The notes under the pieces: model-generated | The model's input: the letters and a program-made list of their open reading frames with translations, nothing else | What the model was told of the DNA's origin: nothing | Databases searched by the model: none | From: Nanopusillaceae archaeon | GTDB taxonomy: Archaea; Nanobdellota; Nanobdellia; Nanobdellales; Nanobdellaceae | Direction: 5' to 3' | Length of the DNA stretch: 21,519 nt | Assembly: GCA_038833255.1 (NCBI GenBank) | Contig: JAWBIX010000004.1 | Location: forward strand, 1 to 21,519 | Shown: positions 137 through 20,241 of the stretch, in pieces | Layout of the letters: each line of letters opens with the position of its first letter | Position numbering within the stretch: position 1 is the stretch's first letter | Program-made: the position numbers and the translations under genes

Positions 137-1099
137 ATGACTTATGAAATATGGACGGAAAAATATAGGCCACGTAGATTATCTGAAATTAAAGGACAAG
201 ATGAAATAATAAAACATCTAAGAGCTTTTGTAGAACAAAAAAATCTTCCACATCTACTATTTTCTGGTCCCCCGGGTGTTGGAAAAACTACTGCAGCTTT
301 AGCTTTAGCTAGAGAATTATATGGTGATGAACAGTGGAGAACAAATTTCTTAGAATTAAATGCTTCTGATGAAAGAGGAATAGATGTAATCAGAGAAAAA
401 GTAAAAGAATTTGCAAAAACAAAACCAATAGGAGACGTTCCATTTAAAATAATATTTTTAGATGAAGCAGATGCTATGACTAGAGACGCTCAACAAGCAT
501 TAAGAAGAATAATGGAACAATATGCTGGAATTACGAGATTTATTTTATCTTGCAATTACTCATCAAAAATTATAGAACCCATACAATCAAGAACAGTGGT
601 ATTTAGATTTAAACCTCTCTCTAAGGAAGCAGTTTTTGATATATTAAAAAATATTGCTGAAAGAGAAAAATTAATTATTGATGAAGAAGCTCTAGAGGCT
701 TTATATTATATATCTGAAGGAGACATGAGAAGAGCAATTAATATATTACAAGCAGCAGCAATTTATAATAAAAACATAACAGCAGATATGATTTATGAAG
801 TTGCCTCCGTTGCAAAACCAAAAGAATTACAAGAAATTTTGAATCTTGCTTATTTAGGAAGATTTGCTGAAGCTAGAGAAAAAATGATAGACTTGATGAT
901 AAAATATGGTTTGGCTGGAGAAGATTTAGTAAAATTGTTGTCTAAAGAAGTTATGAATTTAAATTTAGAAGATAAGGAAAAATTAGAAATTCTTTATTAT
1001 CTTGGAGAGATAGAGTTTAGATTAATGGAGGGAGGAAATCCAATGGTGCAGCTCGGCGCTTTTCTAGCTTATTTGGGATTAAAAGGAATTAAAAAGTAA
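137..1099 (+). CDS. rfcS: Replication factor C small subunit (clamp loader)
   Basis: N-terminal 'WTEKYRP' RFC box, Walker A 'GPPGVGKTT', Walker B 'FLDEADAM' and arginine-finger box 'QSRTVVFRF' (SRC motif with C->T). The 320-aa length is typical. No intein. Confidence 0.95.
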
Positions 1100-1506
1100 T
1101 GGATATAACGAAAATTCCTAAATTTTTAATTTGGATAGCAATTTTTGTCTTTAGTGTTTTTGTTTTATATTTATTATATAACTTTCTAGCTTATAGATTT
1201 TCAAAACCATATGAAAAATACATATTTGTAGATTGCTTTTATAGTAATGAGACTTCTATCGTAATACTTACCGCAAAAGACAATGTAAAGAATATTGTTA
1301 TTTATGATATAAATTTGCAAAATAAATGTGAAATAGCAAATCTGTATAAAGATTCTATGGATGTATGTAAGATTAGTAATGTTAAGACAGGAGGAAAAGT
1401 ATTTGTCAAAATAAATTTTGAAGTAAATAATAAAACATATTCTGCAGTATCTGAATGTAAAATTGAGGAAAGGAAAAGCATATTAGATTGGTTATTTAGC
1501 AAATAA
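1099..1506 (+). CDS. Small N-terminally anchored membrane protein of unknown function, with four Cys in the predicted ectodomain
   Basis: The 135-codon ORF exactly fills the rfcS-rfcL gap and has TAATG stop/start overlaps at both ends (1097-1101 and 1504-1508). It has one hydrophobic helix, 'FLIWIAIFVFSVFVLYLLYNFLAY'. The rest is beta-rich and polar, with C46, C77, C90 and C120. Confidence 0.6.
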   Translation: MDITKIPKFLIWIAIFVFSVFVLYLLYNFLAYRFSKPYEKYIFVDCFYSNETSIVILTAKDNVKNIVIYDINLQNKCEIANLYKDSMDVCKISNVKTGGKVFVKINFEVNNKTYSAVSECKIEERKSILDWLFSK

Positions 1507-2729: not shown

Positions 2730-3196
2730 AATTAGTTAATAAGCAACAACTTTTGCAAATATTAAGGGAAATTTCAAAGGAATACGGCATTGAAGAAATA
2801 AATCTAGATGATTTTATTTTTTTGTTAAATAAAGAAGGAAAGATTTTTTTAGTATATAAAGATTTAGAGAAAATAATAGATAGAATAAAATTTAACAATT
2901 GTGGTTTGTATATCATGAAAATTGAAAAAAATAAAATAAGATTTAGTATTGAAGGTTCTCAAATATTTGGTCCTTTGGCAAAAAAAAGAGTTCTAGAATT
3001 AGATTTGAAAAAAATATTTTGTATTTCTAATGAAATGAAAAAAATCTTCTTAGATATAGATAATGGGTTTTATATTCTTAGAGATGGAAATAATTTTGCA
3101 GGAACAATTTTAGTAAAAAATAAGGAAGTAAAAGATTATATTCCAAAAGAAAGGAAAATTTATGGGGAAAGTTGCATGAATGATGGTAGTATTTGA
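2726..3196 (+). CDS. Hypothetical protein, tentatively a NIP7-like / PUA-type small RNA-binding fold
   Basis: 156 aa, with its start overlapping the rfcL stop (ATGA at 2726-2729). The layout resembles archaeal Nip7-type proteins from memory: an N-terminal alpha/beta half, 'GLYIMKIEKNKIRFSIEG', then a C-terminal 'FYILRDGNNFAGTILVKNKEVKDYIPKERK'. No diagnostic motif, so the functional label is weak. Confidence 0.5.
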   Translation: MKLVNKQQLLQILREISKEYGIEEINLDDFIFLLNKEGKIFLVYKDLEKIIDRIKFNNCGLYIMKIEKNKIRFSIEGSQIFGPLAKKRVLELDLKKIFCISNEMKKIFLDIDNGFYILRDGNNFAGTILVKNKEVKDYIPKERKIYGESCMNDGSI

Positions 3197-4809
3197 CCAA
3201 AGAAGATATTAGTTATTATATATATTCCTGTAGCAATCCAAATTAATAACGCAAAATCTATAAAAATACCAAGCTTTGATCCACCATCTATGTTTTTTAA
3301 AGTTAAAGCAATCATAAATGCCTGAAATATAACTAATAAATTTATAATTTCTTCTAAAATCCTAATATCTATTTCTATTTCAAATAAAGGGATTCCGAAC
3401 ATCCCTCCGATTTCTGTAGATATTAATGTAGAAAGACTCTCAAATAACGTTTTCATCATTGCTGTTATAAAAATAGTAACAAATAATACTGCGGAAAAAG
3501 CAAGAAACCCTCCATATAAAAAGCCCCTTGCCCCAGATATAAATTGTATTTTAAAACTTCTAAGTTCTAAAACTTTTAATAGAACGTCATATAGTTTTTT
3601 ACTAGCTTCTTCTACTTCTCCACCATATTCTAACATTTTATAAAATGGAGTTACAATTTTTGATATCAAATTACTTCCAATTTCTGTTATAAAATAATAC
3701 CAAGATTCTTTGTAATTTCTCGTTATAATGATTCTATTATAAAGATTATTTACATCTTCATTAAGTTCTCCGAAATCATGAATTTTAGCACTTTCTAAAA
3801 TTTTAACTTGATTTGTTCCAAAGACACTAGATAAGCTAATCATTGTATTGTAAAAACTGGAAAATTTTTCTTCTTTTTTCTTAATTAACTTTTCTAATGA
3901 ATTAAATCTGTAACTTACATACATTAGAGGTAGAATAGAAATAGAAAAGCATATTAAAGTATTCTGAAATATTCTGTAAGTTAAGGAAAAAATTAAAATA
4001 GAAATAGATAACAAAATGGCAAATAAATTTCTCAATTTGGAATATTCATTTGGCTTTTCTTTATACGGAACCCAAAGCGAATCTTCGAGTATAAAATATT
4101 TTGATAAAAAGTAAAGCACAGCATTTGCAGAAATAAATGTTACTGTAAAATATATAAATATAGTAAATATGTTAATTTCCATTAACATTGGTAATATTAA
4201 AATAATTACAAATGCAAACGCTAGGGAAGACATTATAGAGACACCAATTTCTTGTAATAATCTTACATTTTCTAGCCCCTTTCTATATCTAACATCAAAG
4301 TTTTCTAATATCTTTTTATGTTCTCTTTCTAAGAAAGAAGGAAGATCTTCTCCAGTTTCTAAAGCTGTTGCTAATCTCTCAAGAAATCCTTTAAATTCGC
4401 AATTTACAATATATGGCAAGAGATATCTTATTGCTTCTGGAAACGTAAAGTTGTATTTTTCGAATACATAAATTAGTCTTTTTATTACTTTAGAAATTTC
4501 AGGATATTCCTGTGATTCGGCTAAAATCTGAAAAAAACGCTTTATATTTGTTGTTGTAAAAGAAATAGAATAAGCATATGTTAGGAAATACTGTAAATCT
4601 TTGTCTAAAGAATATTTTATTTTATAATAACTTACTAAAATTATTTGAACTACAAATATTATATAAATAGAGATTAGAATAATGAATAACTCTATAGAAG
4701 CGTTTGGAAAAAGATAAGTAAAAAGTGTTAGAAAAAATAAGAAAGTTATAGATAATGTTAAAATTTTCTTGTAGGAATCTTTTGCTATATATGAAAGATA
4801 TTCTAACAT
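3160..4809 (-). CDS. FlaJ/TadC-like polytopic membrane protein (type IV filament platform protein with two T2SS-F-type repeats)
   Basis: 549 aa, which is FlaJ-sized, with two cytoplasmic helical modules each followed by TM helices. The first module includes 'FPEAIRYLLPYIVNCEFKGFLERLATALETGEDLPSFLEREHKKILENF'. The second includes 'ESWYYFITEIGSNLISKIVTPFYKMLEYGGEVEEASKKLYDVLLKVLELR'. Its 3' end overlaps the convergent ORF 2726..3196 by 37 nt. Confidence 0.65.
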   Translation of the reverse strand: MLEYLSYIAKDSYKKILTLSITFLFFLTLFTYLFPNASIELFIILISIYIIFVVQIILVSYYKIKYSLDKDLQYFLTYAYSISFTTTNIKRFFQILAESQEYPEISKVIKRLIYVFEKYNFTFPEAIRYLLPYIVNCEFKGFLERLATALETGEDLPSFLEREHKKILENFDVRYRKGLENVRLLQEIGVSIMSSLAFAFVIILILPMLMEINIFTIFIYFTVTFISANAVLYFLSKYFILEDSLWVPYKEKPNEYSKLRNLFAILLSISILIFSLTYRIFQNTLICFSISILPLMYVSYRFNSLEKLIKKKEEKFSSFYNTMISLSSVFGTNQVKILESAKIHDFGELNEDVNNLYNRIIITRNYKESWYYFITEIGSNLISKIVTPFYKMLEYGGEVEEASKKLYDVLLKVLELRSFKIQFISGARGFLYGGFLAFSAVLFVTIFITAMMKTLFESLSTLISTEIGGMFGIPLFEIEIDIRILEEIINLLVIFQAFMIALTLKNIDGGSKLGIFIDFALLIWIATGIYIITNIFFGQILPSFMQLSP

Positions 4810-13172: not shown

Positions 13173-13901
13173 TTAAACAAATATATATCTAGATAAATTA
13201 TTTTTAATTTTTTCACATAGTTTATTTATTTCAAAATTTTTTAAGTTAGCAATATATTCATACAGTTCTTTTAATTTATTTGGATGTAAAATTAAAGATC
13301 TATAGTTATACGGGCCATCAGATTCTGTTAAAATATTATTAATATTAGATTTCTCTAGTACTTTTTTTTGTTTTTCTTGAATAAGACAAGCAATATTTAT
13401 TCCAACAAAATAGTCAACAGAAAATATTTCATTTAATAAATCTTCAGGTCCTGTATACCAATGAAAATATGCTTTTTTTATATCATACTTTATTAAATAA
13501 TCAAAAACTTCTCTCCAAGCACCAACAGAGTGTAAATTAACAGAAAGGTTATACTCTTTGGCATATTTTAAAAAAAATTCAAAGATTTCTTTTTGTTTAT
13601 CAATAGTATTTGGGCAAAATTTTTTATCTAATCCAACTTCTCCAATAATCTTAATATTTTCTTTTTTAAATAAATTTTTAAAAGCTTCTAAATCTTCTTT
13701 TTTTGTTTCTTCCGCTTTCCAAGGATGTATACCTACAGCCGGAATTACATTTTCATATATTAACGACATTTTAATATTTTTTAAAGAAGTATCAAGATTT
13801 TCAGCTACAGAAACAAGGATAATTTTATTATTTCTTAAAATGGATCTTATCTCAGAATCGGAAAATTCATATAGATGAACATGTGAATCTACAAAAATCA
13901 T
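13173..13901 (-). CDS. tatD: TatD-family metal-dependent hydrolase / nuclease
   Basis: All family boxes are readable: 'VDSHVHL', 'IGEVGLDKKF', 'VNLHSVGA', 'FHWYTGP' and 'TESDGPY'. Confidence 0.85.
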   Translation of the reverse strand: MIFVDSHVHLYEFSDSEIRSILRNNKIILVSVAENLDTSLKNIKMSLIYENVIPAVGIHPWKAEETKKEDLEAFKNLFKKENIKIIGEVGLDKKFCPNTIDKQKEIFEFFLKYAKEYNLSVNLHSVGAWREVFDYLIKYDIKKAYFHWYTGPEDLLNEIFSVDYFVGINIACLIQEKQKKVLEKSNINNILTESDGPYNYRSLILHPNKLKELYEYIANLKNFEINKLCEKIKNNLSRYIFV

Positions 13902-13904
13902 TAT

Positions 13905-14255
13905 TTAGATAGATACCTCTCTGTATCCTATATAATCACAATTTGTATTTAAAATAATTTCTATTTTCCCTTTTTCTATACACGGATTATTCTCACCATT
14001 AACAAAACATGAGAAGTCCCTATACACCCAATAAACACCAGTTATTGTATCTTTATCAGATAAACAAACATTTTCTATAGTAAAATTAAAATTGTTTTTA
14101 ACATATTCACATAGAGCAATACAAAGATTTTTAGCATAATTTATTTCTCGAAAATCTATTTTATAATGTTCTTCTTTTTCATAAAATCTTGGAAAAATAA
14201 TTAACAGAGAAAAAATAGCTAAAACTAATATTAAAAATGCTAAACTTTTATTCAT
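13905..14255 (-). CDS. Small N-terminally anchored, Cys-rich extracytoplasmic protein, function unknown
   Basis: 116 aa. 'MNKSLAFLILVLAIFSLLIIF' is a short basic N-terminus followed by one hydrophobic helix. The polar beta-rich domain that follows has six Cys (C45, C49, C64, C83, C92, C106). It lies 3 nt upstream of tatD and 8 nt downstream of the 210-aa coiled-coil gene. Confidence 0.6.
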   Translation of the reverse strand: MNKSLAFLILVLAIFSLLIIFPRFYEKEEHYKIDFREINYAKNLCIALCEYVKNNFNFTIENVCLSDKDTITGVYWVYRDFSCFVNGENNPCIEKGKIEIILNTNCDYIGYREVSI

Positions 14256-14263
14256 AAATACGT

Positions 14264-14896
14264 CTATACTCTTTTTAACTGATCTCTGAGTTGTTTTATC
14301 TCTTCTATAGTTTCTTTTAACTCCTTAGTTGATTCGGATATAGCAGGAACCATTGTCCTTATTAATCTATGTAAAGCTTCTACTTCTACTGTAGCTTCTC
14401 TTATTCCTTTATCATATTCATCTATCTTTTTTGCTAATATCTCATACATTCCATTCATTCTAGTTTCAATATCTTTTAGTTTTTCATTTATTTTTGAAAT
14501 TTCTATTTCTAATTTTTCTTTCCAAATTTTAATTTCAGAAAGTTGAGTGTCAACATGAGTTAATTTGTCCTTTAAAATATCTTCAACTATACCTTGTATA
14601 TAAGATTCCCAATCGTAACTGTAATCTGTACTGTAATCTGTATGTTTTTCTGGTCGATTAGAGGTAAAATATGTTTCCTCAAATTTCTTTGTATCTTCAT
14701 AAATATTCTGGAATGGCGGTTTTACATATGGCTCTGGATAGTCTAATTTTTCTTGTAATGTGGGATGAAAATACGCCGGTTGGTTGTATTCTAAATTTCT
14801 GGATAAAATGCTCTGTTCAAAGCCCGGGTATTGGTTATAATTTTCTAATCTTTCCTCTTTATTTTCTTTTTTTTTGAACTTAAACAAGTCTATCAT
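14264..14896 (-). CDS. Three-part protein of unknown function: basic N-terminal tag, Tyr/Pro-rich low-complexity linker, C-terminal coiled coil
   Basis: 210 aa. It starts 'MIDLFKFKKKENKEE'. Residues about 20-105 are rich in Y, P, E and Q ('YNQYPGFEQ...YNQPAYFHP...DYPEPYVKPPFQNIY...TDYSTDYSYDWESY'). Residues about 105-210 are heptad-like ('EIKIWKEKLEIEISKINEKLKDIETRMNGMYEILAKKIDEY...'). It is the only gene in the window ending in TAG. Confidence 0.6.
   Translation of the reverse strand: MIDLFKFKKKENKEERLENYNQYPGFEQSILSRNLEYNQPAYFHPTLQEKLDYPEPYVKPPFQNIYEDTKKFEETYFTSNRPEKHTDYSTDYSYDWESYIQGIVEDILKDKLTHVDTQLSEIKIWKEKLEIEISKINEKLKDIETRMNGMYEILAKKIDEYDKGIREATVEVEALHRLIRTMVPAISESTKELKETIEEIKQLRDQLKRV
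14618..14641. repeat. Perfect tandem duplication of a 12-nt unit (ACTGTAATCTGT x2) inside the 210-aa gene
   Basis: Read directly: 14618-14629 equals 14630-14641. On the minus strand it encodes TDYS-TDYS within 'HTDYSTDYSYDW'. Confidence 0.9.
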
Positions 14897-14921
14897 AGAA
14901 AAATATTATGTATTCGGAAAT

Positions 14922-15293
14922 TTATATATTTTTACTTTTTGCAGTATTTTTTTCTTTAAGAATTTCTTTTATCTTTTTTTCTATTAATCTTTCTGCTTCT
15001 TTCTTTGTTAGGTAAGAGAAAGGATCTATGATATCTATGTATTTTTCTATTGCTTTTACTCTTTCTATCGGGGCAAATAAAGATAACTGATCGACTATTG
15101 CCTTTATTTTTATATTAATAGCAGAAATTTGATTTTTTATATTTGAAATTTCATTAGATAGCTCATTTATTTTATTTTCAATAATTTTTAGTTTATTTTC
15201 ATTAGTATTTTTTACAGAATCTACAATATTTTCAATTATAGATAAACGATTTTCGATAACTTTCACTTTTTTATCTATGTTAGGGTCTATCAT
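14922..15293 (-). CDS. Coiled-coil protein of unknown function
   Basis: 123 aa. It has long heptad-like I/L/N repeats ('VIENRLSIIENIVDSVKNTNENKLKIIENKINELSNEISNIKNQISAINIKIKAIVDQLS'), then 'IDIIDPFSYLTKKEAERLIEKKIKEILKEK'. It is the first gene of the arm divergent from the ATPase. Confidence 0.6.
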   Translation of the reverse strand: MIDPNIDKKVKVIENRLSIIENIVDSVKNTNENKLKIIENKINELSNEISNIKNQISAINIKIKAIVDQLSLFAPIERVKAIEKYIDIIDPFSYLTKKEAERLIEKKIKEILKEKNTAKSKNI

Positions 15294-15350
15294 AAAAATA
15301 CTAGAAATTTTTTGATAAATAAAAATTTTATATCAAATAGGCAGACTATG

Positions 15351-15360
15351 TTTTTATATG
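15351..15360 (+). promoter_or_regulatory. Candidate TATA box (TTTTTATATG) for the FlaI-like ATPase gene
   Basis: The element ends 24 nt before the ATG at 15385 (first base of the ATG 25 nt from the element's last base), inside the 91-nt divergent intergenic region. A TATA-like run for the opposite gene (plus-strand ATAAATAAAAAT, about 15316-15327) lies about 25-33 nt from the minus-strand ATG at 15293. Confidence 0.35.
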
Positions 15361-15384
15361 CAAAAACAATAATAAAGTAATATT

Positions 15385-17610
15385 ATGGAAACTTTGCCAT
15401 ATTCTATAGAAATAGAAGGAAATGATAGAATACTAAAAATTGATGCTCAAAAGTATCCTTATCTTGCTACAATTGAAGAGGATCCAGAGATAATGGGTTT
15501 TGTTATTTCAAGAATTATAGAAGATCCCAGAATTACATCTATAGAAATAGAGCAAGAAGAAGTGATATCATATCATGGTTCTTCTGTTGATTATTTGAAA
15601 GAATTTGTAGAACTTTATTTAAAATTTAGAGACGTTATTCCGAAATATTATGGATTTCTTGTTAAATCTACTCCATTCTATTTTGAATATCAAAAAGCAA
15701 TTAAATTAATCGAAAAAGAATTTATTAAGCATCCAATTAAAGTGTATGTTGATCTTAAAAGATTATTAAGAAAACTAAACGTAATATCTAGAAAAAATCA
15801 GGAATTGTCTGGCTTTTCTAAACCATTGATAGAGCTTTTATCTTTTTTTGTGACAGAATTTGAAAAGTCTAAAGTATATAAAATAATTAAAGATTTTTTA
15901 GTAGGCTATAGGGGACAAAGAGATATATACAAGAGATTATTTATTGCAGATATAAAACCAAAATTTGTTTTTTTAAAACAAATATTTAAAATAGATCCCG
16001 ATGCGGAGATAATAGAAAGTTATAAGTTAGATAAAGATACGGAAGTTATTATATTTAAAAAAAGAGATGAAGCATTTTACAGATACTATATATACCCTTC
16101 AGAATATAAATTAACATCTGACGAAATCTCTATGTTAAATCAGGCTAGGGAAATTTTAATGAAATATCAACCCAGTGCTTCAGATTATCTTTATCCAGAA
16201 AAACTTAGAGATATTTATGAAAAAATATCTGAAAATATTTTGTTAAATTTAATAAAAGATAAAAATATTTCTAAAGACAGATTAGAGTTGTTAAGAAATA
16301 TACTAATAAGATATACTATTGGATTTGGAATAATAGAAAAGTTAGCTTTAGACGAAAGAATAATTGATATCTACGTAAACCCTCCAGCAGGAATAACGCC
16401 AATTACATTGTTACATGTAGATTATGATCTTTGTGTTACAAACATAATACCTACAAAACGAGAGTTAGAATCTTGGGCAACTAAATTAAGATTATTATCT
16501 GGAAGACCTTTTGATGAGGCAAATCCAATAATTGATACAGAAGTAGAATTTAATGGAATAAGATTAAGAGTAGCAGGAGTAACAAGACCACTTAGCTCTC
16601 ATGGGCTTTCTTATGTATTTAGAAGACATAGAGAAAGACCATGGACTTTACCATTATTTATTCTAAATAAAATGATATCTCCAATTGCTGCTGCATTTCT
16701 ATCTTTTTTAGTTTATAATGGTAGAACAATTTTAATTGCAGGTACTAGAGGAAGCGGTAAGACTTCACTATTGACTTCTTTACTATTGGAACTTCCAAGA
16801 AAGGTAAGAATAATTACTATAGAAGATACTTTAGAGATTCCAGTTATGTATTTAAAAAGATTGGGATATGATGTTTTGTCTTTAAAAGTTAAAAGTCCAT
16901 TTTCATTGCAATCTTCAGAATTAGATGCAGAAAGTGGAGTGAGAGCATCTTTGAGATTGGGAGATTCTGCTATAGTTCTAGGTGAAGTAAGATCAAGAGA
17001 AGCACAAGTTTTATACGAAGCTATGAGAGTTGGAGCTTTATCTAATGCAGTTTTAGGTACAATACATGCAGAAAGTCCATATGGAGTATTTGATAGGGTT
17101 GTAAATGATTTAGGAACACCAAAAACATCATTTAAAGCTACAGATATAATAGTAATAGTAAATCCTATTAAAAGTCCATCAGGATTAAGAAAATATAGAA
17201 GAGTTTTGAGAATAACAGAAGTAAGAAAACATTGGAGTGAAGATCCTTTAAAAGAAAGAGGTTTTGTGGATTTAATGATTTATGATCCAGAAAAAGATGA
17301 ATTACAAATGACTAAAGATCTTATAAATGGAGATTCTGATATTTTAAAATCTATAGCATCTAGAACAAAATTTTTGTCAAAATCTTGGGAAAGACTTTGG
17401 AATATGATAGAAATTTTAGCAGAAATTAAAAAAAGTCTTGTAGAGTTTTCATTAAATTCTGGAAGGTTAGATCTTTTAGAAGCAGATTTTGTTGTTATCT
17501 CTAATGAAAAGACATACTCTCTAATTGACGAAAGCATAAATAGATTTGGAGAAATAGATAAGGAGTATATAATAAATGGATACAAAAAATGGTTGAGAGA
17601 AAAGATATAA
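15385..17610 (+). CDS. FlaI/GspE/VirB11-superfamily type IV filament / secretion ATPase with a long N-terminal region
   Basis: Walker A 'GTRGSGKTS' (codon 453 at 16741), Asp box 'RIITIEDTLEI', Walker B 'AIVLGEVRSREA' and His box 'LGTIHAES'. At 741 aa it is clearly longer than characterised FlaI proteins, which are roughly 510-550 aa from memory. Confidence 0.9.
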   Translation: METLPYSIEIEGNDRILKIDAQKYPYLATIEEDPEIMGFVISRIIEDPRITSIEIEQEEVISYHGSSVDYLKEFVELYLKFRDVIPKYYGFLVKSTPFYFEYQKAIKLIEKEFIKHPIKVYVDLKRLLRKLNVISRKNQELSGFSKPLIELLSFFVTEFEKSKVYKIIKDFLVGYRGQRDIYKRLFIADIKPKFVFLKQIFKIDPDAEIIESYKLDKDTEVIIFKKRDEAFYRYYIYPSEYKLTSDEISMLNQAREILMKYQPSASDYLYPEKLRDIYEKISENILLNLIKDKNISKDRLELLRNILIRYTIGFGIIEKLALDERIIDIYVNPPAGITPITLLHVDYDLCVTNIIPTKRELESWATKLRLLSGRPFDEANPIIDTEVEFNGIRLRVAGVTRPLSSHGLSYVFRRHRERPWTLPLFILNKMISPIAAAFLSFLVYNGRTILIAGTRGSGKTSLLTSLLLELPRKVRIITIEDTLEIPVMYLKRLGYDVLSLKVKSPFSLQSSELDAESGVRASLRLGDSAIVLGEVRSREAQVLYEAMRVGALSNAVLGTIHAESPYGVFDRVVNDLGTPKTSFKATDIIVIVNPIKSPSGLRKYRRVLRITEVRKHWSEDPLKERGFVDLMIYDPEKDELQMTKDLINGDSDILKSIASRTKFLSKSWERLWNMIEILAEIKKSLVEFSLNSGRLDLLEADFVVISNEKTYSLIDESINRFGEIDKEYIINGYKKWLREKI

Positions 17611-19607
17611 AGGATTATTTAAATATTGACATAGAAAAAGAATTAGAATTATATAAAGACCTATACTTCGGTAGTTTACTAAAACTTTACGAATCTATAT
17701 GTATAAAAATACATCGTTTTTTTAAGATATATTCTGGTGATAAAAATAAAATTCAGCAATTTGAATTAGTTAGAAAATCTCTTAATTTAAAAATAAACTA
17801 TCATCATATTTACGCATTTCAACTATTTTTTTTGATTTTATCTATTTTATTTTCATTTTTAATTTTATTTTTATTTGGTGATTTATTAATTTTAATTATA
17901 TTATTAATCTTTTCAATTCTTTTTTCATATTTTTTGGGAGAATATCCTTTTCTCCTTTATAAATCAACCAAAAATAAGAAGAGATCACAATTAATTTCTT
18001 TTTTGCTTTTTCTCGCTTTAAAAATGAGAGAAAGCCCAAATTTAGAAAAAGCTCTATTATTTTCAGTTAGATACACACCACCTCCGTTAAAACTGGATAT
18101 ACTTGTTTTATTAAAAGATATAATTAATAAAACATATCTTTCAGCTGCTGATGCTTTGGATAAATATTCAAAATTATGGGAAGATGAAGCACCGTTTTTT
18201 TCTACAGGTATACAGCTTTTAATTTCTTCTATTTATGAACCGGATCCTATAGAGCGAGAAAAGTTAGTAGATAGGGCACTAGAGGAATCTTTGGATTTAC
18301 TATTAAGTCATATGGAAGTTAATATAAGAGAGTTAAAGGGAGTAATAGATCTTATATCTGTTTTTGGAATTACATTTCCGACATTACTATTAACTATTTT
18401 CCCTTTAGCTTCTGTTTTTCTAGCAGAAGTATTTTCTCCAGTAATATTGTTTATTTTAGTAAATATAGTTATCCCAGTATTTGTTTTTGTTTCAATAAAA
18501 GGATTAATAGAGAACAAAATGTTTAGTATATTTTCTAAAGGAACAATTTATTATTATTTGCATTTAAAAGAAAGAGAAAAAACAATGATTAATTTAAAGG
18601 CTCTAGCAATTTCTATAGGAGCAGTTATTATATTTCTTTATCTGATATTTCATTTTATATTTGATTTTTTATCTAATTTCGTTTTGTTCAATATTATTTT
18701 GGTGGGGATATTTGTATTTAGTGTAGGATTAGGAATAGTTATTTATCATTTTATTTATTATTTTGCATTTAAAGATCTAGACATCGATTTAAGTAAAATA
18801 GAAAAAGATATTTCCTCTTTCTCTTTTACGCTAGGAAATGTTTTGATGAACAATATACCTATAGAAGAGGCAATTATTAAAATAAGAGATAGATTTAAGG
18901 GAAAACCTATAGAAAATTTTTTGAAAGAGATATACAAAAATCTTAGACTTGGAATTCCACTAAAAGTGGCAATATTTGATAAAAATATAGGTGTTTTAAA
19001 AAAATATCCTTCAGCATATTTAGAGGCAGTTATGGAATTATTAATAGAAAGTTCAGCTGTTTCTCCTAAAAATTGTGGAAAAACTGCAATTTTTATAGCC
19101 AAATATTTTAAATATGTAGAGAAAGTAAAGCGAAGGTTGTTAGATTTAACAGCAGAATCTATTTCTCAAATAAAAATTATATCTAGATTAGTTGGACCAG
19201 CAATTTTAGCAGTTGTTATCGCAGTTGCAATACTCTCTCTTTATATTTTGCACGGTCTTGGAATAATTATAAGAAATATAAAATTATATATGGAGACACC
19301 AACAGATTTTAACGAATATATAAGTTATGCAATAATAGACATTTTTAGTTTATTTTCATCTTCAGAAAATCTTACGCCACAGAGATTGTATATAATAGTT
19401 GGGTTTTTTAATATAACAATGACATATCTTTCTGTTTTGATTTTATCTATTGTAGAATATGAAGACGATAAAATAAAAAAATACAAATTAATTTATAGTT
19501 ATTTATTTAGATCCGTTTTACTATTTTTAATATTTTCATTATTAAGTATTATATTTTTGTGGAATTTAGTAGGTCCTCTATTTAGTGAATTTGCATATCT
19601 TTTTTAA
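17589..19607 (+). CDS. Divergent FlaJ/TadC-like polytopic membrane protein, the putative platform partner of the ATPase
   Basis: 672 aa, with its start overlapping the ATPase gene by 22 nt. Two helical cytoplasmic modules are each followed by TM helices. The first includes 'SQLISFLLFLALKMRESPNLEKALLFSVRY...LKDIINKTYLSAADALDKYSKLWEDEAPFF'. The second includes 'FSFTLGNVLMNNIPIEEAIIKIRDRFKGKPIENFLKEIYKNLRLGIPLKVAI...YPSAYLEAVMELLIESSAVSPKN'. The gene order ATPase then membrane protein matches flaI-flaJ / tadA-tadBC. Confidence 0.6.
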   Translation: MVERKDIKDYLNIDIEKELELYKDLYFGSLLKLYESICIKIHRFFKIYSGDKNKIQQFELVRKSLNLKINYHHIYAFQLFFLILSILFSFLILFLFGDLLILIILLIFSILFSYFLGEYPFLLYKSTKNKKRSQLISFLLFLALKMRESPNLEKALLFSVRYTPPPLKLDILVLLKDIINKTYLSAADALDKYSKLWEDEAPFFSTGIQLLISSIYEPDPIEREKLVDRALEESLDLLLSHMEVNIRELKGVIDLISVFGITFPTLLLTIFPLASVFLAEVFSPVILFILVNIVIPVFVFVSIKGLIENKMFSIFSKGTIYYYLHLKEREKTMINLKALAISIGAVIIFLYLIFHFIFDFLSNFVLFNIILVGIFVFSVGLGIVIYHFIYYFAFKDLDIDLSKIEKDISSFSFTLGNVLMNNIPIEEAIIKIRDRFKGKPIENFLKEIYKNLRLGIPLKVAIFDKNIGVLKKYPSAYLEAVMELLIESSAVSPKNCGKTAIFIAKYFKYVEKVKRRLLDLTAESISQIKIISRLVGPAILAVVIAVAILSLYILHGLGIIIRNIKLYMETPTDFNEYISYAIIDIFSLFSSSENLTPQRLYIIVGFFNITMTYLSVLILSIVEYEDDKIKKYKLIYSYLFRSVLLFLIFSLLSIIFLWNLVGPLFSEFAYLF

Positions 19608-20241
19608 TTAAATCAATAGTAAGAGCATTTATTTTTCTTTCTAAAATGTCATCAATAATTCTAGGACATGCTATAATTATCCAAAAATCTATGTATGGAA
19701 AATTGACTAATTTATCTAAATCAATATTATCTCCTATAAAAAGGTAAATTTTTTTATCTTTAAATTTTTTTAATACGAATTTTAAGGAATTATAATCATA
19801 TTGACCTGGTTTTATTGAGATAATAACACCAATATTGTTTGAATTTTTTAAATTCTCCATTAAATATATTACTCTTGTAAAATATTTTCTATACTCGTCT
19901 TTTGGAATAATATTTATTTCCCCATTCACAGGATTGTATACAATTACTTCTTTTTTTAATTTTCTTATGATTTCTAACGCATGAAATTTCCCATCTCCAA
20001 CTAATAAAATTTTGTCTGTTGGTAAATCAGCGTTTTTAATATTACATCCTAAAATATAAAGAGAATTTTTATAGAAGACCTCATATCCTCTTCTTTTCAA
20101 TTCTGAAATAATTTTTTTAGTAATATCTAAATATTGTACTAAACAAACTATTCCAATCTTTTTTGGTAAAACATTTAATAATTTATCAAAGTTTTTTAAT
20201 TCGCTTATTTTTATTTTAATAGGAATAAAAACAATATCCAT
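19582..20241 (-). CDS. dph2: Diphthamide biosynthesis radical-SAM enzyme Dph2 (2-(3-amino-3-carboxypropyl)histidine synthase), a short form lacking the N-terminal domain
   Basis: 'YILGCN', 'LLVGDGKFHAL', 'IGVIISIKPGQ' and 'IIIACPRI' match the domain 2 and 3 signatures of archaeal Dph2. It is only 219 aa, against about 330-340 aa for characterised archaeal Dph2 (from memory). An in-frame stop 8 codons upstream of the ATG rules out a longer ORF. Confidence 0.75.
   Translation of the reverse strand: MDIVFIPIKIKISELKNFDKLLNVLPKKIGIVCLVQYLDITKKIISELKRRGYEVFYKNSLYILGCNIKNADLPTDKILLVGDGKFHALEIIRKLKKEVIVYNPVNGEINIIPKDEYRKYFTRVIYLMENLKNSNNIGVIISIKPGQYDYNSLKFVLKKFKDKKIYLFIGDNIDLDKLVNFPYIDFWIIIACPRIIDDILERKINALTIDLIKKDMQIH

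Follow-up and report, generated by a model that had tools for sequence, protein, structure and literature searches.

A divergent gene module of a Nanopusillaceae archaeon probably encodes the cytoplasmic-membrane core of a type IV filament (TFF) assembly machine, similar in kind to the machinery of the type IV pilus (T4P). The module occupies positions 13905-19607 of the stretch of DNA analysed here, which we refer to as the window (21,519 nucleotides (nt), positions 1 to 21,519 of contig JAWBIX010000004.1, GenBank assembly GCA_038833255.1). Its centre is a secretion ATPase paired with a polytopic platform protein, and two genes for soluble coiled-coil proteins, termed CCshort and CClong, lie divergently upstream. 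Both coiled-coil genes stay linked to this pair in orthologous loci of distant relatives, and some of those loci carry arrays of prepilin genes. The pair itself is separate from the archaellum motor. As a whole, the lineage is near-ubiquitous in the Nanoarchaeota sensu lato (Nanopusillaceae, Nanobdella and Woesearchaeota).

The module and its immediate neighbour consist of the following features:

13173-13901, minus strand: open reading frame (ORF) for TatD
13905-14255, minus strand: 116-amino-acid (aa) protein, N-anchored, with six invariant cysteines; a lineage-specific candidate component
14264-14896, minus strand: CClong, a 210-aa soluble protein with a disordered N-half and a coiled-coil C-half
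14922-15293, minus strand: CCshort, a 123-aa soluble coiled-coil protein with a conserved C-terminal motif
15294-15384, between the strands: divergent AT-rich intergenic region of 91 nt, presumed to hold two back-to-back archaeal promoters
15385-17610, plus strand: 741-aa secretion ATPase of the T2SSE superfamily (Pfam T2SSE 9e-20, intact catalytic boxes)
17589-19607, plus strand: 672-aa polytopic platform protein of a divergent T2SSF/PilC/TadC type, with about eight transmembrane (TM) segments

A preliminary description of this DNA had placed the six ORFs at these same positions, and the gaps of 3, 8 and 25 nt, the 91-nt spacer and the 22-nt overlap of the ATPase and platform genes that it gave all follow from the coordinates. 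Nanobdella, Nanoclepta and Nst1 keep this overlap, which spans about 24-25 nt in them. The same locus is found in identical form on contig JAWAUN010000002.1 of assembly GCA_038891875.1, and the proteins of the window are 85-100% identical to proteins of Nanopusillaceae metagenome-assembled genomes (MAGs). The source archaeon is AT-rich, with a GC content of about 26% (23-32% across the window).

Structure of the ATPase and the platform protein

The ATPase matches Pfam T2SSE (PF00437) over residues 365-591 with 71.1 bits, against a gathering score of 24.9 (E=9e-20). All of its catalytic motifs are intact, namely Walker A (GTRGSGKTS, 453-461), the Asp box (IEDTLE, 479-484), Walker B (GEVRS, 533-537) and the His box (GTIHAES, 558-564). 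Residues G453, K459, S461, E480, D481, E484, G533, E534, R536, T559 and H561 are invariant in an alignment of nine family members, which bears out the earlier description of a FlaI/GspE-type ATPase with four intact boxes.

Among solved structures, the family profile scores best against afGspE (PDB 2OAP/2OAQ; 6e-38 for 2OAP) and the Tad motor CpaF (PDB 8RKD and 9E24; 4e-29), followed by FlaI (1e-20). The alignments cover the N2 and catalytic domains (positions 208-631 for afGspE and 284-617 for CpaF), whereas the first ~200 residues of the window ATPase have no counterpart in these relatives. More specifically, a conserved N-terminal extension of roughly 200-280 aa lies outside the coverage of the solved homologs. 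The module also differs from the Tad system in having a single 672-aa platform in place of a TadB and TadC pair, and neither an Flp-type pilin nor a TadV peptidase is found in the locus. As had been noted before, both core proteins exceed their canonical counterparts in length: afGspE and FlaI have 511-513 aa where the ATPase has 741, and the ArlJ of the same genome has 549 aa where the platform has 672. An intein (precomputed PF14890) is present in one ATPase ortholog of 917 aa (P0025), whose identity to the window ATPase is 64% over 39% of the query.

By Pfam, the platform protein reaches 18 bits against T2SSF (PF00482), below the cutoff of 25.2, and does so in a single stretch (413-544). 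Its Woesearchaeota orthologs give no match to T2SSF, and no T2SSF protein was found when the family profile was compared with PDB sequences. Evidence for the fold comes from the family and from structure prediction. Individually, 11 of 26 platform homologs match T2SSF (best 1.1e-15), and the NCBI name of the identical protein is T2SS F family protein. The AlphaFold2 model (predicted local distance difference test (pLDDT) 81.6, predicted template-modelling score 0.77) retrieves with Foldseek the cytoplasmic domains of EpsF, OutF and PilC, with probabilities of 0.90-0.99, target-normalised template-modelling scores of 0.58-0.72 and root-mean-square deviations (rmsd) of ~3-5 Å; the top-ranked match, the PilC chain of 3JC8, was weak (probability 0.57, rmsd 19 Å). 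Furthermore, the N-half and C-half of the platform align to each other in register with hhalign (E=4e-4 over 115 columns), at a probability of only 34%, which is moderate support.

Because the family members, the fold match and the alignment of the two halves all support T2SS-F-type repeats, the absence of such repeats, which had been named as a finding that would speak against the module, is not what we observe. The two FlaJ/TadC-like repeats of the preliminary description are not recovered by Pfam on the window protein itself, where one sub-threshold stretch is seen, and they do stand by transitivity through the family, by the predicted model and by the internal repeat. On this evidence, the 672-aa protein is a very divergent double-T2SSF platform.

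Conservation of the gene neighbourhood

The ATPase alignment was scanned against one genome per GTDB species, and the neighbourhoods were counted with local hidden Markov models on the best loci. Full-length relatives of the ATPase occur in at least 562 species genomes, and the best 80 ATPase loci all come from Nanoarchaeota or Woesearchaeota MAGs. In 69 of 72 loci the ATPase gene is directly followed by the platform gene. Divergently upstream, CCshort is present in 52 of 64 loci, and CClong is found upstream in 50 of 64; the two occur there together in 50 of 64. Three tandem paralogs with five TM segments each (5-TM) follow beyond the coiled-coil genes in 33 of 54 loci, and the 116-aa family adjoins CClong in 6 loci, restricted to Nanopusillaceae and Nanobdella. 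Unbiased clustering of all genes at the loci returned the same families at the top (ATPase 85 loci, platform 79, CCshort, as cluster 2, 55, CClong 51 and the 5-TM triplet 41), with every other cluster in at most 22 loci. No archaellin and no FlaF/G/H family was found among the recurrent gene clusters.

These counts bear on whether the coiled-coil, 116-aa and TatD genes belong to the machine at all, or are unrelated neighbours (such as cell-division or chromosome-associated coiled coils) held in place by conserved gene order. In Nanopusillaceae, Nanobdella and Nst1 synteny extends over all 15-20 kb, with housekeeping genes among them, and Nanoclepta likewise keeps the region in full; adjacency at this distance is therefore uninformative on functional linkage. 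The coiled-coil proteins also carry no diagnostic domain, and no coiled-coil genes are detectable within 7 kb of the ATPase in 14 of 64 loci. The Woesearchaeota loci speak against mere neighbourhood: their ATPases are 44-46% identical to that of the window and all housekeeping flanks have changed, yet CCshort and CClong still lie divergently upstream. Since the divergent adjacency persists there despite the changed flanks, the ATPase/platform pair has genuine partners in the two coiled-coil genes, and we regard a general explanation by unrelated neighbours as highly unlikely. The divergent arrangement, whose conservation in related genomes had been proposed as a test, is kept with its coiled-coil genes in 50 of 64 loci, which are spread over Nanoarchaeota and Woesearchaeota.

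For TatD and the 116-aa gene, the explanation by unrelated neighbours is probably right or undecided. TatD had been listed in the left arm of the module; its linkage is confined to regions that are syntenic throughout, and its cluster (cluster 13) occurs in only 10 loci on mixed strands, so that we rejected it as a component of the system. The 116-aa gene keeps its place in Nanopusillaceae and Nanobdella and is not conserved beyond them. It is a lineage-specific addition to the module.

Further genes recur in the Woesearchaeota loci. The 5-TM triplet, made up of three tandem paralogs of ~190 aa with the N-terminal motif ..DV.LPFLLVFT.VFAIL.KT..., is found beyond the coiled-coil genes in 41 Woesearchaeota loci (for example L004 3936-5876, L005 5126-6798 and L068 4143-5826). 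It matches no Pfam, NCBIfam or other known family and is absent from the window. A gene of ~50 aa resembling a ribbon-helix-helix (RHH, CopG-type) regulator, with the motif KKPISATID...YRNKSHLIE, occurs in 12 Woesearchaeota loci, where it directly adjoins the start of the ATPase gene or overlaps it (for example L006 7774-7950, L015 6817-6966 and L022 3877-4026). It may be a dedicated regulator; the 91-nt spacer of the window holds no counterpart. Some contigs with the module (L019-L025, L035, L039, L040, L080 and others) are titled 'uncultured Methanosarcinales archaeon' or, in the case of L080, 'Armatimonadota bacterium', which is probably placeholder taxonomy or mis-binning.

Coiled-coil partner proteins

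CCshort (123 aa) and CClong (210 aa) are soluble coiled-coil proteins without a TM segment, in agreement with the preliminary description. CCshort carries the C-terminal motif YI(D/N)..(D/E)P..(F/Y).TK.E.E..IE.K, and its homologs in Woesearchaeota are recovered with scores of 1e-9 to 1e-11. CClong combines a disordered N-half rich in Y/E/P/K with a conserved coiled-coil C-half bearing the motifs WKEK...EYD...ALHRLI...P, and its family comprises 1162 members at E<=0.01. Among 120 listed members no consistent Pfam domain is found; there are sporadic single matches, and the names are 'hypothetical' or unrelated automatic ones. Neither CCshort nor CClong has a specific Pfam, NCBIfam or PDB family. 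Aligned to each other with hhalign, the two profiles match over 70 columns (E=7.7e-4), a common A-L-x3-I...P motif being in register, and the two proteins may thus be distant paralogs.

The N-half of CClong differs by lineage, as a comparison of the window (14264-14896, minus strand) with L004 (5940-6539, minus strand) illustrates. In Woesearchaeota it contains a UBA/HTH-like domain of ~45 aa (weak Raf1_HTH and UBA_DHX29 matches), and in Nanopusillaceae, Nanobdella and Nanoclepta it is a low-complexity region rich in Y/E/P/Q/N.

The preliminary description had likened the coiled-coil proteins to the archaellum accessories FlaC/D/E/X. This likeness does not hold, since the FlaC_arch signal lies at the level of generic coiled-coil noise. 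FlaC_arch gives E=0.033-0.11 against the window proteins, is matched by two of six CCshort members (E>=0.033) and is absent from the recurrent CClong matches; the signal is no stronger than that of 30-60 other generic coiled-coil families. FlaC/D/E/X, FliJ, prefoldin and SMC-like proteins were all rejected as identities, every match being sub-threshold coiled-coil noise. Homology to the neighbours of halobacterial 4F systems (see below) was likewise rejected, with no signal in the Haloterrigena locus.

No DPANN coiled-coil partners are described in Makarova et al. 2016 or in the 2026 TFF preprint. Searches of open-access full texts returned no paper on CCshort or CClong, and papers on Nanopusillus, Nanobdella and a DPANN co-culture make no mention of the module. 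As conserved partner proteins, CCshort and CClong seem undescribed.

Between the CCshort and ATPase genes, the 91-nt spacer contains a TATA-like TTTTTATAT ~29 nt upstream of the ATPase ATG, and a second stretch, A/T-rich and likewise TATA-like, is placed about as far from the CCshort start. Nanobdella, Nst1 and other Nanopusillus have a spacer of only 38-50 nt, in which the common core AAA(T/C)T(A/T)T(T/A)ATAT recurs. From these elements we presume a pair of back-to-back archaeal promoters.

Prepilin arrays and the six-cysteine protein

In ~14 Woesearchaeota loci, one to six class III genes (K/R-G|hydrophobic) follow the platform gene on the same strand, at a distance of 2-7 kb. Their N-termini are textbook class III sequences, such as MNKKG|AELSFNVIIVAILVILVLVV and MEKRG|QSLPLNVIVIAIIVVVVLVV. 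The arrays include Flp-like ORFs (50-80 aa) and Cys-rich proteins (105-155 aa) as well as longer proteins, of 230-340 aa; examples are L081 11531-13907, L048 8356-11199, L059 13266-16217 and L068 11581-14665. Because these class III prepilin arrays stand after the platform gene, it is very probable that the machine family assembles a type IV filament. The earlier statement that the module has no filament subunit therefore applies to the locus in the window and not to the family, whose orthologous Woesearchaeota loci carry such arrays.

The 116-aa protein beside CClong has one TM helix within residues 1-27 and the invariant residues C45, C49, C64, C83, C92 and C106, together with W76; its description as an N-anchored, Cys-rich protein is thus supported. 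The family is small, with only 6 representative clusters among 1.84 billion proteins, and has no Pfam or NCBIfam match. In the structural model (pLDDT 77), the TM helix is followed by a linker, a second helix carrying C45 and C49, and a small sheet. A FlaF/FlaG-like protein had been suggested from its architecture. The model and the fold search do not support this, and we rejected it: the helix and small sheet match neither FlaF/FlaG nor any other PDB entry.

We also rejected the 116-aa protein as a canonical prepilin. A basic N-terminus and a hydrophobic helix are present, and position -1 is Ser (MNKS|LAFL); this relaxed KS|LAFL match is not kept in orthologs. A possible KA|F site occurs in one Nanopusillaceae ortholog (L008) only.

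The 116-aa family does resemble one family of Woesearchaeota prepilins, cluster 19 (class III, 105-155 aa). Cluster 19 has an A-x3-C-x3-C motif ~25 residues after the hydrophobic helix, and in 5 of 8 members six cysteines are spaced 4, 15-18, 19-30, 7-21 and 5-13. The same layout is seen in the 116-aa family, with six cysteines spaced 4, 12-16, 19-27, 6-18 and 12-18. The two profiles align at the A-x3-C-x3-C motif (hhalign, P=0.0012, 18 columns), and a comparison limited to the ectodomains scores above 197 of 200 column shuffles. It is plausible, though somewhat less likely than not, that the 116-aa protein is a degenerate, uncleaved pilin derivative.

Distinction from the archaellum

An archaellum has much the same inventory of parts as the module, namely a secretion ATPase, a polytopic platform, cytoplasmic coiled-coil accessories and a small N-anchored extracellular protein. 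The pair could accordingly be the ArlI/ArlJ motor of a scattered arl set, with the coiled coils as divergent ArlC/D/E or ArlX. Orthologs of the ATPase are named 'FlaI' in the sources, and some CCshort members 'archaellum component FlaC'; the FlaI equivalog is the best NCBIfam match of the ATPase (1.3e-37; TadA scores 2e-31); and terrestrial Nanoarchaeota are reported to have scattered, non-clustered arl genes and archaella. The FlaI match, however, amounts to 130 bits against a cutoff of 550, and by profile afGspE and CpaF are favoured over FlaI by 9-17 orders of magnitude.

The window furthermore contains a stand-alone, full-length ArlJ/FlaJ of 549 aa (3160-4809, minus strand), which matches NCBIfam NF004704 at 6e-82 over model positions 21-554 of 555 and Pfam T2SSF at 8e-9. 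It shows no significant pairwise similarity to the 672-aa platform, and hhalign of the two gives only E=0.069 over 35 columns. Because of this separate ArlJ, the missed FlaI cutoff, the preference for afGspE and CpaF, and the scattered arl genes known from related organisms, the module is not the archaellum motor. The ArlJ gene lies between RFC-associated genes and rpl4, with no adjacent ArlI, ArlH or archaellin gene, which fits the scattered arl genes reported for terrestrial Nanoarchaeota. The annotated FlaJ of Nst1 is also 549 aa long.

Several further observations point the same way. Nst1 has a distinct ArlI of Clade 3, while its ortholog of the module belongs to Clade 4, and N. equitans has a partner on the same branch yet no archaellum. 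The FlaC_arch matches are at noise level, and the Woesearchaeota loci have pilins downstream, with archaellin and FlaF/G/H absent from the recurrent clusters. Despite the shared inventory, the module thus differs from the archaellum in its set of paralogs, in coiled coils that are not FlaC/D/E/X, in a 116-aa protein without a FlaF/G-like fold and in the lack of an ArlH. We consider an archaellum motor extremely unlikely.

Relation to known type IV filament lineages

In Nst1, the module corresponds to Nst1_442 to Nst1_446, with Nst1_443 as the ATPase ortholog. Nst1 encodes four further FlaI-family ATPases; Podar et al. 2013 give Nst1_088, 227 and 260 as other FlaI paralogs. The locus tags 088, 227, 260 and 443 are spaced by 139, 33 and 183, and the gi numbers (..254, 391, 424, 604) by 137, 33 and 180. 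Since the locus-tag spacing tracks the gi spacing in Makarova et al. 2016 (PMC4858521), Nst1_443 is gi 490715604. In that work, gi 490715604 falls in Clade 4, on a nanoarchaeal branch with N. equitans gi 41615211 that is sister to Thermoplasmatales and halobacterial 4F. The window ATPase is therefore a member of the nanoarchaeal Clade-4 lineage beside subclade 4F, an assignment that was reached indirectly, from the spacing of locus tags and gi numbers. The impression that the module was uncatalogued is thereby corrected: its lineage already appears in Makarova et al. 2016, who could not find the cognate pilins of the nanoarchaeal branch, just as none are found in the window.

The closest relative of the ATPase/platform pair outside DPANN is located on the Haloterrigena turkmenica plasmid pHTUR04 (L088 5227-10094). 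The Haloterrigena ATPase is 42% identical over the catalytic core. The DPANN profiles recover it at 3.7e-90, and its platform, which bears the name 'secretion system protein', at 2e-38. Around the pair lie two acidic proteins of 175 and 154 aa, each with an N-terminal hydrophobic helix, together with ParA, an AAA ATPase and a DEAD-box helicase; compared with the CCshort, CClong, triplet and 116-aa profiles, the neighbours of this locus all gave E>0.1. Halobacterial 4F loci carry PilA-family pilins (arCOG02981, arCOG10216) and the aspartate-rich arCOG07564, often with S-layer-like or CetZ neighbours, and subsystem 4F is also treated in the preprint of Sivabalasarma & Albers 2026. No class III (PilA-family) protein of this accessory set was found in the window by a FlaFind-style scan, the method by which class III proteins were sought. 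In contrast to 4F, the DPANN module has two soluble coiled-coil proteins and often three 5-TM paralogs, and its ATPase is longer (~750 aa against ~620-650 aa).

Subsystem 4D of Pyrobaculum and Thermoproteus likewise has an ATPase and a platform without a recognisable pilin nearby, and has been interpreted as possibly repurposed. It belongs to a different clade, however, is confined to Thermoproteales and has TFIIB and RNA polymerase neighbours, whereas orthologs of the window module in sister lineages carry pilin arrays.

Proposed mechanism

The T2SSE ATPase is translationally coupled to the double-T2SSF platform and, in a filament assembly machine, would work as a hexamer. Hydrolysis of ATP would pull N-anchored subunits from the membrane and polymerise them. 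CCshort and CClong, probably paralogs expressed from the divergent promoter, would act as lineage-specific cytoplasmic accessory subunits, and may dock on the N-terminal extension of the ATPase as a scaffold or regulator. Their role would be analogous, not homologous, to that of ArlX/ArlCDE or arCOG07564. The substrates in Woesearchaeota would be the ordinary class III prepilins encoded downstream; those in Nanopusillaceae would be encoded elsewhere, or the substrate might be the adjacent 116-aa six-cysteine protein (a pilin minus its cleavage site). Attachment to a host or surface, not swimming, would be the likely role.

A number of observations weigh against this assignment. Neither the window nor the 10 kb beyond it, where housekeeping genes only are found, contains a canonical class III protein, an A24 peptidase or a FlaH-like protein. 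Pilins are nearby in only ~20% of the loci, and Makarova et al. 2016 (PMC4858521) report no prepilin peptidase in two nanoarchaea. Regarding the 116-aa protein, its model has no PDB match with a probability >0.1 and hence none to any pilin; position -1 is neither Gly nor Ala in twelve other distinct family members that were aligned; and its link to prepilins consists of the 18-column alignment and the cysteine pattern. The indirect lineage placement and the 14 of 64 loci in which coiled-coil genes are not detectable count on the same side.

Part of this evidence would suit a T4P-derived machine that, in Nanopusillaceae, has lost its filament and been repurposed for protein or lipid transfer, membrane remodelling or a cytoplasmic bridge at the host contact. 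The missing pilin and peptidase in and near the locus, the reported absence of a prepilin peptidase from two nanoarchaea and the degenerate class III motif of all 116-aa family members are consistent with it. The module is moreover embedded in housekeeping genes and kept in very reduced genomes, and the pilin-less subsystem 4D, described as a remnant with a repurposed function, offers a precedent. Bona fide prepilin arrays nevertheless accompany the orthologous Woesearchaeota loci, and conservation of the catalytic and platform features is complete, just as it is in relatives that assemble filaments. Archaeal pilins are often encoded apart from their motor, and Nanobdella shows filaments of more than one type along with several genes for archaellin-like or pilin-like proteins. 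We therefore judge a filament-less, repurposed machine unlikely and retain the filament assembly machine as the preferred assignment.

A more specific version of the machine can be drawn for the Nanoarchaeales, in which it would work independently of a peptidase. The 116-aa protein would be an uncleaved, disulfide-stapled pseudopilin that forms a short, membrane-anchored structure at the host contact, with the coiled-coil pair on the ATPase N-domain, and the whole would be a host-attachment or bridge device and not an ordinary adhesive pilus. In this full form, the proposal is distinctly unlikely.

Other genes in the window

Downstream of the platform gene, on the opposite strand, lies a short Dph2-like gene (19582-20241, minus strand; 219 aa, Pfam Diphthamide_syn positions 64-270 of 302). 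The two genes converge and share 26 nt at their 3' ends, an arrangement that is kept in Nanobdella, Nanoclepta and Nst1. A second N-anchored protein, of 135 aa and with four cysteines, is encoded at 1099-1506 (plus strand) between RFC small (137-1099) and RFC large (1506-2729), sharing its boundary bases with both. It belongs to no family and has a weak match to the bindosome pilin-like BasA (E=0.0045). Scans of the window for tRNA genes and Rfam families gave no matches.

Implications

The core of the module belongs to an already catalogued, uncharacterised archaeal TFF lineage, and the DPANN-specific accessory set appears new. The gene set can now be defined as the ATPase, the platform and two coiled-coil proteins, often with three 5-TM proteins and a small RHH regulator, and with prepilin arrays in some lineages. 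This extends the arCOG-based classification of TFF systems, in which these accessory families are not described. Should the 116-aa protein be an uncleaved pilin derivative, it would help to explain the reported lack of a prepilin peptidase in nanoarchaea.

DPANN archaea attach to the hosts on which they feed, and filaments and bridges have been seen at the contact sites. The module, with relatives in at least 562 species genomes, is among the few candidates for a surface apparatus that are kept throughout an entire DPANN phylum. Because the cultured lineages of Nanopusillus, Nanobdella, Nanoclepta and Nst1 possess it, its role is open to experimental test.

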